Shown here one piece after another: positions 1-15,748 of a stretch of DNA of 15,748 nt. The notes below the pieces were generated by a model. The model made no database searches. It worked only from the letters and a program-made list of their open reading frames with translations, and was not told where the DNA came from. The first letter of the stretch is position 1. The number at the start of each line of letters is the position of its first letter. Origin of the DNA: a virus (Duplodnaviria > Heunggongvirae > Uroviricota > Caudoviricetes); IMG/VR virus record IMGVR_UViG_2651869748_000011; one strand, 5' to 3'. The translations under genes were made by a program, and so were the position numbers.

Positions 1-246
1 TCAGTATTTCCCCGATACCTTGTGTGCAAATTGCATCAGATAGTTGATAGCCTTTTGTTTGTCGTTCTGGCTGAGTTCGTGCTTACCACAGAATACAGCC
101 ATTCCGAATCCGGCTTGTGATTGCGCCATCCCCATAGCAGCCATCACATCAGTACCGGAAAGAGAGTCAGAAGCCGTAGCCCGTGGTGAGTCGCTCATCA
201 TCGGGCTTTTTGGCGAATGAAATTTAGCTACGCTTTCGAGTCTCAT
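1..246 (-). CDS. Q: Late-gene antiterminator Q (lambda type), N-terminal 81 codons only; the ORF closes with TGA at window positions 1-3
   Basis: Translation [31 protein letters not shown]...KVSGKY matches the lambda Q N-terminus as recalled; ATG at 246-244 overlaps the ninI stop. Lambda Q is about 207 aa, so this copy appears truncated. Confidence 0.85.
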
Positions 247-908
247 GCGCCTTCTCCCTGTACCTGAATCAATGTGAGGTTTCCGCAGAACACTGCGCCG
301 GTATCGATATACATCTGGTTGGCAAACTTGAGTGGTTTCACTGCTGGCGTATGACCAAAGATGAACGTGTCCGCACCTTTGATTTCTTTCACGATCCCGT
401 CTTGTGAGTTGCTGATTCGTTCGCGGTTCCAGATTACCTGCTGATGATCAACTGGTTTTCCAAACTCGTATTCGTCACAAGGATAATCGGCGTGGCAGAT
501 GACATATTTTTTATCTTTGCTCACCAGTTCGATGATTAACGGAAGTTCATCTGCTTTATGGGCAAGAGCTTTAGCCAGAATTTCTTTGTCGTAATCGAGA
601 TTAAAGAACCATCCACCGCCATTAAGCAGCCAGTGATTAACGTTTCCACGCTCTGATAAGCCATCAATCATCATTTGCTCATGGTTTCCACGTACAGCTC
701 TGAACCAGGGGAATGTGATTAATTCCAGGCATTCGACGTTCTCTGCACCACGATCAACCAAATCGCCCACCGAGATAAGCAGGTCTTTTTTGTTGTCGAA
801 TCCAATCGTATCCAGTTTGTTCATCAGGTTCGTGTAGCATCCGTGCAGATCGCCAACTACCCAAATATTTCGGTATTTGCTGCCATCAATTTTTTCGTAA
901 TAGCGCAT
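243..908 (-). CDS. ninI: Ser/Thr protein phosphatase (lambda PPase, NinI), 221 aa
   Basis: Starts [25 protein letters not shown]; metallophosphatase motifs GDLHG, GDLVDRG, GNHE; near-identical to recalled lambda PPase. Start set at the internal ATG (906-908) rather than the upstream end of the ORF. Confidence 0.93.
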
Positions 909-6027: not shown

Positions 6028-7383
<1,356 letters not shown>

Positions 7384-8739: not shown

Positions 8740-8826
8740 ATGGAAGAAGAATTTGAAGAGTTCGAAGAGCATCCGCAGGATGTAATGGAACAGTACCAGG
8801 ACTATCCGTATGACTACGACTATTGA
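8740..8826 (+). CDS. Small acidic 28-aa ORF upstream of, and overlapping, ral; doubtful gene
   Basis: MEEEFEEFEEHPQDVMEQYQDYPYDYDY; ATG preceded by AAGGTGA; not in the ORF track because of its size. Confidence 0.3.
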   Translation: MEEEFEEFEEHPQDVMEQYQDYPYDYDY

Positions 8827-8989
8827 TAAGAATCAATGGTGTGGACAATTCAAGCGATGCAATGGATGCAAGCTGCAATCGGAATGCATGGTTAAGCCTG
8901 AAGAAATGTTTCCTGTAATAGAAGATGGGAAATATGTCGATAAATGGGCAATACGAACGACGGCAATGATTGCCAGAGAACTTGGTTAA
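8810..8989 (+). CDS. ral: Ral (restriction-alleviation protein) with a premature in-frame TAA; 59 aa here versus about 66 aa in lambda
   Basis: MTTTIDKNQWCGQFKRCNGCKLQSECMVKPEEMFPV.EDGKYVDKWAIRTTAMIARELG then TAA; the same frame continues as QNNKAA-TGA (stop at 9008-9010), matching the lambda Ral C-terminus as recalled. Confidence 0.75.
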   Translation: MTTTIDKNQWCGQFKRCNGCKLQSECMVKPEEMFPVIEDGKYVDKWAIRTTAMIARELG

Positions 8990-9109
8990 CAGAACAACAA
9001 AGCTGCCTGATAGTGGCCTTTATTTTTGGCATAAATAACAGAATAAACACTGCACTGAACCGCCCCGGGAATCCTGGAGACTAAACTCCCTGAGAAAGAG
9101 GTAAACAGG

Positions 9110-9436
9110 ATGACTAAAAATACTCGTTTTTCCCCTGAAGTCCGTCAACGGGCAGCCCGTATGGTTCTGGAAAGTCAGGGCGAATATGACTCACAATGGG
9201 CGACAATTTGTTCCATTGCTCCAAAGATTGGCTGTACGCCGGAGACTCTGCGTGTCTGGGTTCGCCAGCATGAGCGGGATACCGGGGGCGGTGATGGAGG
9301 GCTCACCACCGCTGAACGTCAGCGTCTGAAAGAGCTGGAGCGTGAAAATCGTGAACTGCGCCGCAGTAACGATATCCTTCGCCAGGCTTCCGCTTATTTT
9401 GCGAAGGCGGAGTTCGACCGCCTCTGGAAAAAATAA
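9110..9436 (+). CDS. IS3-family transposase OrfA (HTH/leucine-zipper part)
   Basis: [60 protein letters not shown]...; A6 run at the orfA/orfB overlap is the likely programmed -1 frameshift window. Confidence 0.9.
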
Positions 9437-10323
9437 TGCCGCTGCTGGATAAGCTGCGTGAGCAGTACGGGGTCGGACCGCTATGCAGCGAACTGCATAT
9501 TGCCCCGTCAACGTATTACCACTGTCAGCAACAGCGACATCATCCGGATAAACGCAGTGCCCGTGCGCAGCGCGATGACTGGCTGAAGAAAGAGATACAG
9601 CGCGTATACGATGAAAATCACAAGGTATACGGTGTGCGTAAAGTCTGGCGTCAGTTGTTACGGGAAGGAATCAGAGTGGCCAGATGCACTGTGGCACGTC
9701 TCATGGCGGTTATGGGACTTGCCGGTGTTCTCCGGGGTAAAAAGGTCCGCACTACCGTCAGCCGGAAAGCCGTTGCCGCATGCGACCGCGTAAACCGTCA
9801 GTTCGTGGCAGAACGTCCAGACCAGTTGTGGGTGGCTGATTTTACCTGGGTAAGCACATGGCAGGGCTTCGTTTATGTGGCGTTCATCATTGATGTGTTC
9901 GCCGGATACATCGTGGGATGGCAGGTCTCATCATCCATGGAAACAACATTCGTGCTGGATGCACTGGAGCAGGCGTTGTGGGCCCGTCGGCCGTCCGGCA
10001 CAATCCATCACAGTGATAAAGGTTCTCAGTATGTATCGCTGGCCTACACGCAGCGGCTTAAGGAAGCCGGATTACTGGCATCAACAGGGAGTACTGGCGA
10101 CTCGTATGACAACGCGATGGCGGAGAGCATCAATGGTCTTTACAAAGCGGAGGTAATACACCGTAAGAGCTGGAAAAACCGTGCAGAAGTGGAACTGGCC
10201 ACACTCACGTGGGTGGACTGGTATAACAATCGACGATTGCTGGAAAGGCTGGGCCATACTCCCCCGGCAGAAGCAGAAAAAGCTTATTATGCTTCCATCG
10301 GAAACGATGATCTGGCAGCCTGA
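9436..10323 (+). CDS. IS3-family transposase OrfB (DDE integrase-like catalytic domain)
   Basis: [15 protein letters not shown]...WVADFTWVSTWQGFVYVAFIIDVFAGYIVGW...HHSDKGSQYVS...DNAMAESINGLYKAEV; rve-type DDE domain. Confidence 0.9.
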   Translation: MPLLDKLREQYGVGPLCSELHIAPSTYYHCQQQRHHPDKRSARAQRDDWLKKEIQRVYDENHKVYGVRKVWRQLLREGIRVARCTVARLMAVMGLAGVLRGKKVRTTVSRKAVAACDRVNRQFVAERPDQLWVADFTWVSTWQGFVYVAFIIDVFAGYIVGWQVSSSMETTFVLDALEQALWARRPSGTIHHSDKGSQYVSLAYTQRLKEAGLLASTGSTGDSYDNAMAESINGLYKAEVIHRKSWKNRAEVELATLTWVDWYNNRRLLERLGHTPPAEAEKAYYASIGNDDLAA

Positions 10324-10365
10324 GTTCACAGATAAAACACTCTCCAGGAAACCCGGGGCGGTTCA

Positions 10366-10554
10366 CTGCGTGTGTGGGTTCGTCAGCATGAGCGGGATAC
10401 CGGGAGTGGTGATGGTGGACTCACCACCGCTGAACGTCAGCGTCTGAAAGAGCTGGAACGTGAAAATCGTGAACTGCGCCGCAGTAACGATATCCTTCGC
10501 CAGGCTTCCGCTTATTTTGCGAAGGCGGAGTTCGACCGCCTCTGGAAAAAATAA
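10366..10554 (+). pseudogene. 5'-truncated orfA remnant of the second IS element
   Basis: Encodes ...[60 protein letters not shown] with no native start codon or left inverted repeat. Confidence 0.8.
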
Positions 10555-11441
10555 TGCCGCTGCTGGATAAGCTGCGTGAGCAGTACGGGGTCGGACCGGT
10601 ATGCAGTGAACTGCATATTGCCCCGTCAACGTATTACCACTGTCAGCAACAGCGACATCATCCTGATAAACGCAGTGCCCGTGCTCAGCGCGATGACTGG
10701 CTGAAGAGAGAGATACAGCGCGTATACGATGAAAATCACAAGGTATACGGTGTGCGTAAAGTCTGGCGCCAGTTGTTACGCGAAGGTATCAGGGTGGCCA
10801 GATGTACAGTGGCGCGCCTCATGGCGGTTATGGGACTTGCCGGTGTTCTCCGGGGTAAAAAGGTCCGTACTACCGTCAGCCGGAAAGCCGTTTCCGCAGG
10901 CGACCGCGTAAACCGTCAGTTCGTGGCAGAACGTCCTGACCAGCTGTGGGTGGCTGATTTTACTTACGTCAGCACATGGCAGGGCTTCGTCTATGTGGCG
11001 TTCATCATTGATGTGTTTGCCGGATGTATCGTGGGGTGGCGAGTCTCATCGTCTATGGAAACGACATTCGTGCTGGATGCACTGGAGCAGGCGTTGTGGG
11101 CCCGTCGGCCGTCCGGCACAGTCCATCACAGTGATAAAGGTTCTCAGTATGTATCACTGGCCTATACGGAGCGACTAAAAGAAGCAAAACTGCTGGCATC
11201 AACAGGGAGTACAGGTGACTCGTATGACAACGCGATGGCGGAGAGCATCAATGGTCTTTACAAAGCGGAGGTAATACACCGTAAGAGCTGGAAAAACCGT
11301 GCAGAAGTGGAACTGGCCACACTCACGTGGGTGGACTGGTATAACAATCGACGATTGCTGGGAAGGCTGGGTCATATCCCTCCGGCAGAAGCAGAAAAAG
11401 CTTATTATGCTTCCATCAGAAACGATGATCTGGCAGCCTGA
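10554..11441 (+). CDS. IS3-family transposase OrfB of the truncated element (probably not expressible as OrfAB)
   Basis: 295-aa ORF about 95% identical in protein to copy-1 OrfB (e.g. FAGCIVGWRVSSS versus FAGYIVGWQVSSS). Confidence 0.8.
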   Translation: MPLLDKLREQYGVGPVCSELHIAPSTYYHCQQQRHHPDKRSARAQRDDWLKREIQRVYDENHKVYGVRKVWRQLLREGIRVARCTVARLMAVMGLAGVLRGKKVRTTVSRKAVSAGDRVNRQFVAERPDQLWVADFTYVSTWQGFVYVAFIIDVFAGCIVGWRVSSSMETTFVLDALEQALWARRPSGTVHHSDKGSQYVSLAYTERLKEAKLLASTGSTGDSYDNAMAESINGLYKAEVIHRKSWKNRAEVELATLTWVDWYNNRRLLGRLGHIPPAEAEKAYYASIRNDDLAA

Positions 11442-11713
11442 GTTCACAGATAAAACACTCTCCAGGAAAACCGGGGCGGTTCAAATAACATTGTGCGTAC
11501 TCCTCTTGAGAAGGTGAGAACTATCGGTATCGCAGACACAGTTATGCCTACGGGTCTCCCCGCATCGGTCATTCTCAAAAGGTTTAAAATAGGGTTAGGT
11601 TTGATCACTCTGAACGATCAATCGAAGACATTACGATTGGAACAAACGATCAATAGGTATGTGGTTATTTGCTAAGCTGCGACAACCTTTACAAAGACAC
11701 TCAGGAATGTTTC

Positions 11714-12022
11714 ATGCCCAAATTAGCTATTAGCTTATTACTTTACTTGGCCTGCTTTTATGCAGTTGGATATGGCGCTGGATATATAACAGGTGGAATA
11801 ACTTGGCACACACTGTATATGCTTGAACGTATAATTACCGTAGCCCTACTTGCATTCATTCCAGTGTTTATCTTTGCGGCTTTATTAAATGCATCCAAAA
11901 GACAAGGAATAATAAAATCACTTTCTGTCTCAGCGATTAATTTAATCCCTTCGGCTATCGCATTACTTATAGGATTTACTGACGCAGTGACCAGAAAGTT
12001 TCTTACTTATTTTCTCGGTTAA
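11714..12022 (+). CDS. Small hydrophobic membrane protein (102 aa, about 3 predicted TM helices), AT-rich gene
   Basis: MPKLAISLLLYLACFYAVGYGAGYITGG...ERIITVALLAFIPVFIFAALL...INLIPSAIALLIGF; SD AGGAA 9 nt upstream; its 3' end overlaps the convergent 63-aa gene by about 20 bp. Confidence 0.55.
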   Translation: MPKLAISLLLYLACFYAVGYGAGYITGGITWHTLYMLERIITVALLAFIPVFIFAALLNASKRQGIIKSLSVSAINLIPSAIALLIGFTDAVTRKFLTYFLG

Positions 12023-12194
12023 CTGACATATTGCGAATGACCAACTGTTCTATTAGCTCATTACGAGAATAAAATGGTCGGTCATTCGTAGCCGCTTTAT
12101 CCACGCCAAGCATCGACAATAGAATAGAAGTGGGAAGCCCCCGGTAACGCAGGGTCAAACGGCCTTCGGGAGTGCGTGGGTCAATCATAGCCAT
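12003..12194 (-). CDS. Hypothetical 63-aa protein, translationally linked to the upstream 161-aa gene
   Basis: ATG at 12194 sits 2 nt after the upstream TAA and is preceded by GGAG; MAMIDPRTPEGRLTLRYRGLPTSILLSMLGVDKAATNDRPFYSRNELIEQLVIRNMSVNRENK. Confidence 0.5.
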   Translation of the reverse strand: MAMIDPRTPEGRLTLRYRGLPTSILLSMLGVDKAATNDRPFYSRNELIEQLVIRNMSVNRENK

Positions 12195-12196
12195 TG

Positions 12197-12682
12197 TTAA
12201 AGTCTCCACTCACAGCGACCGACACGTAGCTCCTCAAACTCCTCTTTCGAGACGAGTTGTCCAGCCCTGTAGTGCGATACCGTGTGCTTCTTAATGAATG
12301 CCTTAGAGTCCGGCGTGATGTCGTCCGAAGATGCTACAGCGGCCTGTACGCTGGCACTGGAGGTCATAGACACAAAGGCATCCGCTACAGCTATTCCGTA
12401 CTCAAAGTCCAGCCACTCGCCAAACTTGACGGCGGACGTGGGGTCAGCAAGCCATGACGTACCGAGGCGACCCATATCAACTTTCTTTATGCGGCGGTTT
12501 TTCTGCCCCATAAGATAGCGCCCGACTTTGGTCTGAGCGAAACGCTTAACCATTGTCTTCTCGGTGTCTTCTACCTTACCAATCTGAATACCGACCCGGC
12601 GAATTTCATCCAATCGGAACAATCCGTCTTGACTGGTGAGGTCCTGACCGAAGATATGGATAGTGTATTCTTGTTGAGACAT
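12197..12682 (-). CDS. Hypothetical 161-aa protein, possibly KilA-N-like DNA-binding domain
   Basis: MSQQEYTIHIFGQDLTSQDGLFRLDEIRRVGI...GRLGTSWLADPTSAVKFGEWLD resembles the KilA-N conserved core (G-T-[WY]-x-H/A...W-L motif); strong SD AAAAGGAG upstream of the ATG at 12682. Assignment is from memory. Confidence 0.6.
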   Translation of the reverse strand: MSQQEYTIHIFGQDLTSQDGLFRLDEIRRVGIQIGKVEDTEKTMVKRFAQTKVGRYLMGQKNRRIKKVDMGRLGTSWLADPTSAVKFGEWLDFEYGIAVADAFVSMTSSASVQAAVASSDDITPDSKAFIKKHTVSHYRAGQLVSKEEFEELRVGRCEWRL

Positions 12683-12905
12683 ATCGTTGTACTCCTTTTA
12701 TCTGCATCCTGAAGCCGCATCCTGCCGCCTACTCAAAGCCCCCAACGATAGGGAGACGGCAGGCAACAAGACGCAGATAGAATGACTTTGAGATTTGATG
12801 ATTAGTGTCGGCGGTGGCACTTATTTAAAACGAAAGGACAACAGCATATTTCCGCATGACTTGACGCATCAAGGCCAGAGGCAGAAATAAGTATTTGCTC
12901 GGTGT

Positions 12906-12929
12906 CGTTCCTAAGGTGATAGTTTAGTC
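12906..12929 (-). promoter_or_regulatory. Second, weaker phage-RNAP promoter-like copy sharing the same -18 to -5 block
   Basis: Minus strand GACTAAACTATCACCTTAGGAACG; a 14-nt block (GACTAAACTATCAC) is identical to the upstream copy, but the initiation region is degenerate. Confidence 0.3.
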
Positions 12930-13447
12930 AAACAGTAATGAACTTCGGAGAACTTGACTCGAAAGTGTTCAGGACTTCCAGTGAGACCCGAAGTATGGAG
13001 ATCATATTATAGCGACCATAGTTTACTTCGGACTGACAGGACTGGAGGCTGGACTTAAAGTTCTTCTTATTGGAATTGTGATAACACAATCCATAACAAG
13101 ATAAACTCATGGTCTCCTCAAGCCTGCTGGTCAAGACTCAAAGCTCCAACCTCAGACACCACCACTGGTCTAACCTCTTTGAGTTTCCGCCTGTCCACAA
13201 ATGGATGGCAGACCTCAGCAATGATGTCTTGGTTCTTCAGTTATCCGCGCAGCGATTATCACAGAGCCAACTTAAAGTCGGATGTGGTCTTCTGCTCCCC
13301 GCCTGTCAAAAGGGAAGATAACCTACGTTAAAAGAGAATGGTCTCAGGCCAAGGTGATTTAACACTAGGCGTCTGCGGATGGTTTCCAATCGGTCCGCTA
13401 CCGGAAGCCTGAGACTATATGAATGTGTGGGTCGGTGACTTAGGGCC

Positions 13448-13470
13448 TCTCCCTATAGTGATAGTTTAGT
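13448..13470 (-). promoter_or_regulatory. T7-family single-subunit RNA polymerase promoter-like sequence (candidate), predicted start G at 13453
   Basis: Minus strand ACTAAACTATCACTATAGGGAGA; positions -8 to +6 (TCACTATAGGGAGA) are identical to the T7 consensus, while -17 to -9 differ (a different specificity region); located 18 bp downstream of the 219-aa gene stop. Confidence 0.45.
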
Positions 13471-13488
13471 CCCCCTTCCCCGTCAGCC

Positions 13489-14148
13489 CTACTCGTTAGC
13501 GGCCTGTTGCTGTTCCCTCGCTTTCCGGTCCCGGTCTTCAATGCCCTTAAGCGCCCGTTCCGGCATACTGTTAAACATGGCTTCGACTTCTTTCGGTCGA
13601 GTAATCTGCTCAGTGACAATAATGTTCAGCAGCTTAAAGAGACCATGCGCCAACTGAGGGTCGTCATCAATGTTAATTTCACCCGGATGTACCGCCTGAT
13701 TGCCAACAATACGACAGATGTCAGCAGCTCGCTGGACCAGTGGAGACAGCCCTTTAGCTACAAGGGACTTAATGTCCGTGTCGATATGCTTCCCCGGCTC
13801 ACCGAGATGGACCATCAGCTTTTGAAGACTTAAGCGCAGGAGTGCGGCAGCGCCCTTAGGTGACAGATTAATGATGCTTCTGGCTTCCATGTAGTCGGAC
13901 TTACAGTCTTCTGGCATGTCAGGATTAGGCAGCTCAACACTACCAGCCGCAGGAATCATCATATTGCCTTTATACCAATAAGCATTTTCATAGCAATGTT
14001 GACAATATGATAAGTGGAAATCAGTTTCCATATAAGTAGAATGAGGCGCAACTCCCACCATTGACCGCCAGCTTTGCTTGGAATAAACACCACAGTGCGG
14101 GCAATTAAAAGCTTTACCATCAAACACCGCCGGATAATACTCAGCCAT
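13489..14148 (-). CDS. 219-aa protein with N-terminal Zn-ribbon (CPHCG...CQHC) and a C-terminal region possibly DUF4145/HEPN-like; translationally coupled to the integrase
   Basis: [25 protein letters not shown]...[13 protein letters not shown]...; C-terminal motif [17 protein letters not shown]; its ATG (14148-14146) overlaps the integrase TGA (ATGGCTGA). Family call is tentative. Confidence 0.6.
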
Positions 14149-15748
14149 TTACTCCAGTCTCCTTATAAACATCAGCCATCACATTAACCAATCTATCTAC
14201 CTCGACTTCTTTCGCATACCTGTCATAGGTAATCGACCCTGAGCTATGACCCATAATCGCCTGAGCATACGCTAACCCGACCCCATGTTGTTTTAACTGG
14301 GTCGCCACTGTATGTCTGAATGAGTGGAACGCTAAGCCGCTACGGTCAGCGAGGACTTTAGGTAGCAACGTTCTGTTAAACCATTTGCTCACCTGCTCAC
14401 CGTAGCCGTTCTTCATCAGCTTGAGGCCATCGAATACCATAGCATTATCACCCTTAGCCTTTCTACGGTCTTCCACGAGTGACATAAAGTCAGCCAATAA
14501 AAAACCATAAGCACCATCTACCAACGGGACACAGCGGTCACTATGGGCGTTCTTGATGCTCTTACCCGGTAGGCTGCTATCGTCTTCGTTGATATGGATA
14601 TACACGGTCCCGGCCTCAGTGGTCCTGACGTCTTTGACCTGAAGCTGAGCCACCTCATTAAGTCTTGCTCCAGTGATTGCCGCCAGAGCAGTGACGTAAT
14701 AGTGGTAGGGCTTACCTGAGGTCTTCTGAGAGTACGCTTTAGCGGCGACCAGTAGTTGCCCTACCTGCTCAGGACTGAACGCATCACGAGCGTCGGAGGC
14801 TTTACGCTGCGGGACTTTCAGCTCAAGACCTTCGGTCAGGTTCTTAGCTATCAAGTCGTTGCGTACCGCCCACTTAAACACAGCAGCCATCTTGATAAGA
14901 TATTTATTGTTGATGGTAACGACATCCAAACAGTCAGTCTTAGACTCCCGGTTCAGCAGGTCAGACAGCGGCATAGACTTAAAGCGTTGCTTGCGGTTCT
15001 TCGGTATCTGCTGGAGGACTTCACGGACCCTGAGCATATCTGAACGGGTCGCCTTGCTGACATCCTGAATATCCAGATAGTCGAATATCTCGATTAACGT
15101 AGAGTGAGACGCTCGGTTCTCGCTTAGGGTCGCTGGCTTCCAGTTCTGAGCGTTCTCCTGCTCGTACTGCTCAATGAGAGACGCGAGGGTCAGTGCTTTA
15201 GGCTCGGGGACTTCAGGCTCTGCCAATACAGATAGGGAGACGGACGGTCTTAGACTGCCAGTCTCAGGCTCAAGGTAAGACAACAGGCCAGAGGTATCGC
15301 CTTTGAGTCTATCCTGACACGCTTTAAGCACACCGATAACGTCATTGATATAGCGATGCTGGTCTACAGTCAGATGCTCAGTCGCTACAGCTTCCCGAAG
15401 GTTGGACTTGATGTCATCGTACTGGTCAACGTAGAGCTGGTAGGACTCAGGGTCGTTCAGGTCATCGCGGCTGACACTAAGTTCCCACTCGACAATGGTC
15501 TTCAGGTGTTCCCGTAGCTCCTCATAAGAGGCGTTAGGGTTGTCTGCGTGGATTGCTTTAAGTGCTGACTTGATGTGCCGTGAGTGAGCCATAGCGGTAC
15601 GTCTATCCTTGGTCCGTAAAGATACTGACGCTAGTTTATAACGGTTGTGAGAAGGAAGCGAAGCGGTCAGGCGACTAGTGGTCTTCATCCTAAGACGGAT
15701 GTAAAAGACACCGTTACGCTGATAAAGGTAGGTTCTTGAATTGAGCAT
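14141..15748 (-). CDS. Tyrosine site-specific recombinase / integrase (535 aa), unrelated to lambda Int
   Basis: C-terminal catalytic residues: R in [12 protein letters not shown]-x-x-R in [10 protein letters not shown] in [11 protein letters not shown]; N-terminus [20 protein letters not shown] typical of large-N-terminus integrases; its ATG is the last 3 bases of the window. Confidence 0.85.

Follow-up and report, generated by a model that had tools for sequence, protein, structure and literature searches.

A lambda-type Q antiterminator gene probably interrupted by an IS629/IS1203-group element in an Escherichia coli prophage remnant, and a possible breakpoint hot spot at the same site

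The cryptic lambdoid prophages of Escherichia coli K-12 (DLP12, Rac and Qin) hold partial gene sets with which a lytic cycle is impossible, and some of their immunity and exclusion genes are kept. The insertion sequence IS629 ranks among the main agents by which E. coli prophage genes are inactivated or deleted; in O157, 62% of its copies lie within prophages (PMC9943667, PMC3271280, PMC4587872). The element has been described as having no sequence-specific target (PMC3271280). Deletions that depend on the IS-excision enhancer (IEE) adjoin the IS, range from a few nucleotides to >40 kb and are closed by microhomology-mediated joining (PMC9943667).

The locus studied here lies at one end of a stretch of 15,748 nucleotides, which we call the window, and it shares features with both kinds of described case. 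Like DLP12, Rac and Qin, the window carries a partial lambdoid gene set in which some immunity and exclusion genes are kept; unlike them, the phage fragment measures only ~9 kb, has IS copies at its ends and lies within an integrative island unrelated to it. As in the prophage inactivations by IS629/IS1203 known from EHEC O157 and its relatives, the element is 1310 nt long, has termini reading TGAACCGCCCCGG... and carries orfA and orfB; the target is a gene of a lambdoid prophage, and both IS-adjacent deletions and nested IS copies are seen. The disruption of Q is, as such, an ordinary route of prophage disabling; a disruption at the position of codon 81 was not found in the literature searched.

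The truncated Q reading frame and the sequence behind its stop codon

The 5' part of a lambda-type Q antiterminator gene, here called Q', occupies positions 1..246 of the window on the minus strand and was recognized from its translation, its identity to the genes of lambda and Sf101 and its match to Pfam PF03589. Read from 246 to 1, it opens with an ATG, runs through 81 codons and closes with a TGA at positions 3..1. The product agrees with residues 1–81 of the Q proteins of lambda and Sf101 at 80 of 81 positions (99%), the sole difference being A51V, and matches PF03589 (Antitermination protein Q) at E = 8e-18 over profile positions 1–62 of 87. The surroundings are also those of lambda Q: the gene order is alike, and the start of Q overlaps the stop of the upstream gene ninI in the same ATGA as in lambda. 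The latter gene (243..908, minus strand), a Ser/Thr phosphatase gene of 221 aa, is identified by the gene call, a Pfam Metallophos match and the annotations of matching records. Full-length Q, in lambda and Sf101 as well as in a protein-database cluster of 3759 members, has 207 aa, and the Q' product is without residues 82–207, i.e. 126 residues. The earlier note on this DNA had described Q as cut short at codon 81 with the loss of more than 120 residues relative to lambda Q, and the alignment bears out both statements.

What follows the stop can be read from contigs that extend past the window. The window corresponds to bases 76 onward of the NCBI draft contig JHSG01000002.1, with 0 mismatches across 10,246 overlapping bases, and past the stop of Q' both this contig and JHRG01000244.1, from a second assembly, run on as TGAACCGCCCCGGGAATCCTGGAGAC..., the left inverted repeat of an IS. 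In both, ...GGGGAAATAC is followed by TGAACCGCCCCGGGAATCCTGGAGACTAAACTCCCTGAGAAAGAGGTAAACAGGATGACTAAAAATAC..., which comprises the left inverted repeat and the start of orfA; at loci L001 and L002 the sequence beyond Q' reads TGAACCGCCCCGGGAATCCTGGAGACTAAACTCC...ATGACTAAAAATAC. Between 75 and 93 nt of this Q-side element are visible, and both NCBI contigs end inside it. The sequence after codon 81 is of the same IS type as the complete copy at 9056–10365 of the window, and the terminal inverted repeat of the element abutting Q begins with 5'-TG, as in known copies of the IS629/IS1203 group. Compared copy by copy, the 93-nt stretch past Q' is free of mismatches to the IS resident in the glyU island of NZ_CP062871, differs at 3 positions from the complete window copy and at 4 from one that RefSeq labels as IS1203 family. 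In a megablast search with the last 1200 window bases, every match to a phage or to E. coli stops at query base 1197, and directly before the TGA the homology breaks off, whether to lambda, to Sf101 or to any E. coli Q gene. By contig continuation, alignment and megablast, the stop codon (1..3, minus strand) thus also opens, as its first three bases, the left inverted repeat of an IS629/IS1203-group element, of which the remainder falls beyond the window.

Since the bases beyond the stop are the left end of an IS, the TGA is to be attributed to the element and not to a mutated Arg codon. We conclude, with high confidence, that Q was interrupted by an IS of the IS629/IS1203 group (IS3 family) joined precisely at its terminus and that the TGA is IS-derived. 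The left terminus of the element, 5'-TGAACCGCC..., follows Q codon 81 (lambda nt 44128) with nothing in between; read in this phase, the IS opens with TGA, and translation stops without a single IS-derived residue. The evidence for the junction comes from draft assemblies, and the Q'–IS junction was found in none of the complete E. coli genomes of RefSeq, the GTDB representative genomes, IMG/VR and the JGI metagenome contigs.

Three other origins of the 81-codon frame have to be weighed against an IS insertion. The earlier note had proposed that a single C-to-T change of an Arg codon created the TGA, with the remaining Q in frame behind it. Such an origin has some appeal, as TGA is one base from CGA, nonsense mutations of this kind are common in cryptic prophages and ral in the same window does carry one; codon 82, however, is CGT in both lambda and Sf101, and a C-to-T change there gives TGT (Cys) and no stop. 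Moreover, AAATACCGTGGTGTGGC is carried by 117 IMG/VR contigs, and the bases past the TGA are an IS terminus, not GGTGTGGCAAAG. In a point-nonsense pseudogene homology continues past the stop; here IS sequence follows instead, the search beyond position 1 that the earlier note had recommended revealed no continuation of the Q frame, and the probability left for a point mutation is vanishingly small. It is just as hard to believe that this phage group naturally has a short Q, an option that the earlier note had kept in view: apart from the existence of the ORF nothing speaks for it, the Q proteins of the nearest relatives have 207 aa and the Pfam domain match breaks off at profile position 62 of 87. 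The exact 81-aa product occurs, according to the gene-position index, on only three contigs (JHSG01000002.1, JHRG01000244.1 and one from run ERR987442), and for this reason we do not regard it as a natural short form. An artefact of assembly, in which a chimeric contig end was produced at a collapsed IS repeat, is more worth considering as both NCBI contigs end within the IS and IS copies often break or misjoin draft assemblies. We nevertheless judge it very unlikely: the identical Q'–IS junction is present in two separate NCBI assemblies, the 81-aa product is found also in an independently assembled SRA run, the join coincides to the base with the IS terminus (TG...), as expected of a transposase, and another assembly holds a second, different Q::IS629 junction.

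With an IS insertion as the preferred reading, the annotation changes. Q' is a gene fragment and an IS-disrupted pseudogene in an IS-scrambled prophage fragment, neither a point mutant nor a functional member of the Q family. As the disruption is by an IS, reversion through a single base change is impossible.

The prophage fragment and its insertion sequences

Along the window, the phage genes follow one another in the order Q', ninI, ninH, ninG, ninF, ninX, dam, ninB, ren, P, O, cII, cro, cI, a 134-aa ORF, N, sieB and ral. Everything left of ral is lost, and the phage DNA, ~9 kb in all, has IS copies at both ends. A complete relative with the same immunity region resides at the lambda attachment site (attB-lambda) of strain LD22-1, and left of ral it carries int, xis, exo, bet, gam, kil and cIII, all of which are absent from the window; the left arm that an inducible lambdoid prophage has is here replaced by IS copies and the glyU island. 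The phage DNA is a rearranged prophage remnant within the tRNA-Gly island and not an inducible prophage. Q' belongs to a 9-kb fragment of immunity, replication and nin genes, flanked by IS copies on both sides and placed inside that island. The earlier note had pictured a cryptic prophage that had lost its left arm through IS activity and retained immunity and exclusion functions; the degraded, IS-bounded remnant agrees with the former, and the presence of cI, cro, cII, O, P, the nin genes, N and sieB agrees with the latter.

The cI-type repressor gene (6350..6982, plus strand; gene call and Pfam), with HTH and S24 peptidase domains, is apparently intact, and its product equals that of the LD22-1 prophage in length (210 aa). 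Directly 3' of cI, in the position of rexAB, lies the 134-aa ORF (6979–7383, plus strand), which has no Pfam or NCBIfam match and accompanies the same 210-aa cI in unrelated contigs (L009–L011). The last phage gene, ral (8810..8989, plus strand), was identified with Pfam Ral, covered over profile positions 1–59 of 66, and by alignment to lambda ral; it ends at codon 60 of 66 through a change of AAA to TAA at 8987–8989. This nonsense codon had been cited as a further sign of decay. It is real, but at least 12 complete E. coli genomes carry this allele, ending 7 codons early, at 100% identity, and RefSeq annotates it as a Ral family protein; its stop therefore represents a common allele and not a private defect.

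Behind ral, the window holds two IS copies. The former (copy 1; 9056..10365, plus strand), a complete IS3 element of the IS629/IS1203 group of 1310 nt, was delimited by its inverted repeats and transposase matches; its left end adjoins phage DNA just past ral, and its right end adjoins nt 193 of another IS. It is 94.9% identical to a RefSeq copy labelled "IS3-like element IS1203 family". The latter (copy 2; 10366..11483, plus strand) is, by sequence comparison, of the same group, starts without its first 192 nt and shares 99.6% identity with the IS that resides in the tRNA-Gly island of NZ_CP062871 (L005 7104–8417). The in-window IS copies encode the IS3-family transposases orfA and orfB (NCBIfam; NF033516 at 312 bits). 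The name IS629/IS1203 builds on the RefSeq labels of relatives, the element length (1310 nt) and, in part, what we take to be the terminal-repeat sequence of IS629; the string of the IS terminus gave no matches in a literature search.

The remainder of the window (11484..15748, plus strand) is not lambda DNA. By identity, annotation and Pfam it is part of a tRNA-Gly (glyU) integrative island adjoining ETT2, with genes for a 535-aa integrase and a DUF4145 protein, and it is 100% identical to two complete E. coli genomes, NZ_CP062871 and NZ_CM172811. In comparison with NZ_CP062871, 580 nt of the island are missing next to the right end of the truncated IS (window 11481–11486 versus L005 8415–9000), an IS-adjacent deletion. 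Between and within small ORFs of the island upstream of the DUF4145 gene, a 20-nt direct repeat, CCTAAGGTGATAGTTTAGTC, is present in three copies (12910–12929, 13452–13471 and 13854–13873; 75–100% identical).

The draft contigs leave room for two views of what stands behind the Q-side IS. Over 93 nt (L002 2636–2728), that element matches exactly the beginning of the IS resident in the glyU island, and copy 2 of the window is this resident IS type without its first 192 nt. These relationships suggest that copy 1 may have transposed into a resident-type IS in connection with an inversion that split one IS into two pieces, and they fit it because the Q-side element carries the start that copy 2 lacks. 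Had an inversion occurred, one would find neither the 3' part of Q nor the late genes behind the IS; we lean, without great assurance, towards such a rearranged junction, in which they would no longer follow the element directly. The other view is that of a simple insertion, with Q intact apart from one complete IS and its target duplication of 3–4 bp and with the 3' part of Q, pR' and the lysis and late genes directly behind; it expects ...GGTTCA(TAC)CGTGGTGTGG at ~1310 nt past the junction. This is the default outcome for IS3-family transposition, and IS629 does make duplications of 3–4 bp (PMC3271280). On the other hand, the phage fragment lies inside the glyU island and not at a phage attachment site, its other end is IS-rearranged and joined to an IS without the first 192 nt, and the visible end of the Q-side IS matches, without a difference, the beginning of exactly that IS type, as fits an inversion. 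The 124-aa Q 3' product to be expected was on no source-assembly contig among those listed by exact look-up, which is weak evidence. We thus consider a simple insertion quite possible, though the view we lean away from. Three kinds of search bear on the right-hand side of the element. Synthetic queries combining the IS end with the 3' part of Q in both orientations found no IS copy at codons 77–82 in E. coli genomes; right-hand junction patterns (the IS end, 0–16 nt and CGTGGTGTGGCAAAG, or the IS end and then TATCGGGG) were found in neither IMG/VR nor metagenomes; and the exact look-up, which used guessed Q 3' fragment proteins, listed no contigs from the source assembly and returned unrelated deletion joints instead.

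Recurrent breakpoints within Q

The insertion point falls within a palindrome, GGTAT-CGGGGAA-ATAC(C), that spans Q codons 77–82 (4..19 of the window, minus strand) and was defined from the sequence, its DNA fold and tables of junctions. In its full form, GGTAT-CGGGGAA-ATACC, it corresponds to lambda 44113–44129, and the wild-type 26-mer has a DNA fold of −3.2 kcal/mol. The IS next to the window sits in the right arm, after ATAC. Base 17 of the window equals lambda 44115, and this position is a recurrent breakpoint of other assemblies (breakpoint loci L007–L023, L024 and L149–L151). In at least 11 contexts, the 3' part of Q starts exactly at lambda 44115 (TATCGGGGAAATACCGTGG...), with a different left partner each time; the joints, which contain no IS, lead from the partner straight into TATCGGGGAAATACC.... 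The partners are bet, ea22, ea8.5, cro, DNA close to cII (in two different joints), O, ninE, ninX, ninG and a chromosomal cscB-like gene. The reciprocal joint, with Q codons 1–77 (...CACAAGGTA) fused to tail genes, is seen in two contigs.

A further contig, MOZU01000074.1, reads ...CACAAGGTAT followed directly by TGAACCGCCCCGGGTTTCCTGGAGAG, that is, by the right end of an IS629-group element in the orientation opposite to that of the window IS, and the IS end falls exactly behind ...AAGGTAT. This is a second, independent IS629 insertion, placed 11 nt upstream of the window insertion in the other arm of the palindrome. Its boundary coincides with the fixed ends of all the deletions described above, and in both insertions the left end of the IS faces the loop of the palindrome, so that the two are in mirror orientation. 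The deletions share one pattern: one end is fixed at the IS boundary, the far end varies, the joint has 1–2 nt of microhomology and the IS is lost. They are in this like the IEE deletions at IS629, which likewise have one fixed end at the IS boundary, a variable extent and no IS left; unlike the products of IEE deletions, the window still carries its IS. Whereas IS629 is described as lacking a sequence-specific target (PMC3271280), two independent insertions stand here 11 nt apart. Among the IMG/VR contigs with the site, 117 of 118 are wild type, and the rearranged forms are therefore rare and come from degraded prophages.

Taken at face value, these junctions suggest that Q codons 77–82 may be an IS-anchored breakpoint hot spot. 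The stronger proposition, that the codons are a preferred target of IS629-group elements and that one-sided deletions of the IEE type make up a recurrent, nucleotide-precise route of loss, is tentative, the evidence being circumstantial, and we rate it slightly less likely than not. Several other causes of the breakpoint were considered and rejected. The Chi-like sequence CGTGGTGT has two mismatches to Chi and is in the wrong orientation; a secondary attachment site for lambda Int shows no resemblance to the core; and targeting of the IS91 or IS200/IS605 type is contradicted by a left flank that is not conserved. A vector or restriction-site artefact is out of place, the nearest HindIII site being at lambda 44141 and not at 44115, and a contig artefact disagrees with the occurrence of the same joint from different assemblers and with different left flanks.

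Other irregularities cluster around this part of the gene. In seven complete E. coli genomes, an IS629-group copy lies 250–400 nt upstream of Q codon 78, within ninI or before the start of Q, and the ninI–Q region has therefore been hit repeatedly by an element of this group. More than 100 draft assemblies break their contigs inside Q at codons 80–91 (protein clusters P0059–P0078), the N-terminal partials ending between K80 and T91 and the C-terminal ones starting at V84, E88 or G89; this implies a repeat or branch boundary there in many genomes. Several frameshifted variants of Q have their change in or near the GGGGAAA run of codons 79–80 (...KVSGNTVVWQS...; P0090, P0099, P0101, P0104, P0107 and P0108), one of these codon 79–80 variants being on a 4.6-Mb contig, and could be either real slippage mutations or homopolymer sequencing errors. 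Finally, at L153 3001–3426, a deletion of another type connects Q codon 95 (...GCAAAGGTA) with lambda 45986 in Rz and removes pR', S and R; P0086 and P0088 break within 1–2 codons of the codon 95 joint, and the left side is again AAGGTA.

Predicted loss of Q function and its implications

The structures found for Q (PDB 4MO1, 7UBJ and 7UBM) help to judge what is left of the protein. In Q-lambda, residues 1–60 are disordered and form a torus in the RNA-exit channel; residues 61–113 and 153–207 make up a four-helix body, whose HTH binds to the Q-binding element; and residues 114–152 form a zinc-ribbon arm, through which the protein touches sigma region 4 and the beta' zinc-binding domain (PMC9388147). 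The N-terminal segment (residues 1–60) is present in Q' and, except for A51V, identical to that of lambda Q. The four-helix body with the HTH is incomplete, with the ORF ending at residue 81 and the Pfam match at 62 of 87, and the zinc ribbon motif CxxC...CxxC is absent; compared with lambda Q, most of the body and the whole of the ribbon are gone. From the published structures, the 81-aa product would keep the disordered segment and ~20 residues of the body, have no HTH for the Q-binding element at pR' and no zinc ribbon, and would not load onto RNA polymerase or antiterminate. Without the DNA-binding motif and the zinc ribbon, Q' should be unable to load at pR' and antiterminate, and it should be inactive. 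The earlier expectation that the prophage is unable to express its late genes is sound so far as it concerns the function of Q; late genes themselves are not seen at all. Late-gene expression here would need another Q supplied in trans.

The nucleotide-precise breakpoint in Q is the one uncommon feature of the locus, and it may be a genuine hot spot. If so, lambdoid prophages of E. coli would lose their early or late region from this site in Q, and the window would represent one of at least two independent insertions, placed as mirror images in the two arms of a palindrome. Such a hot spot would be new and would provide a testable target preference for an IS that has been reported without one. 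It would also give a simple marker of how lambdoid prophages in E. coli are disabled and whittled down.
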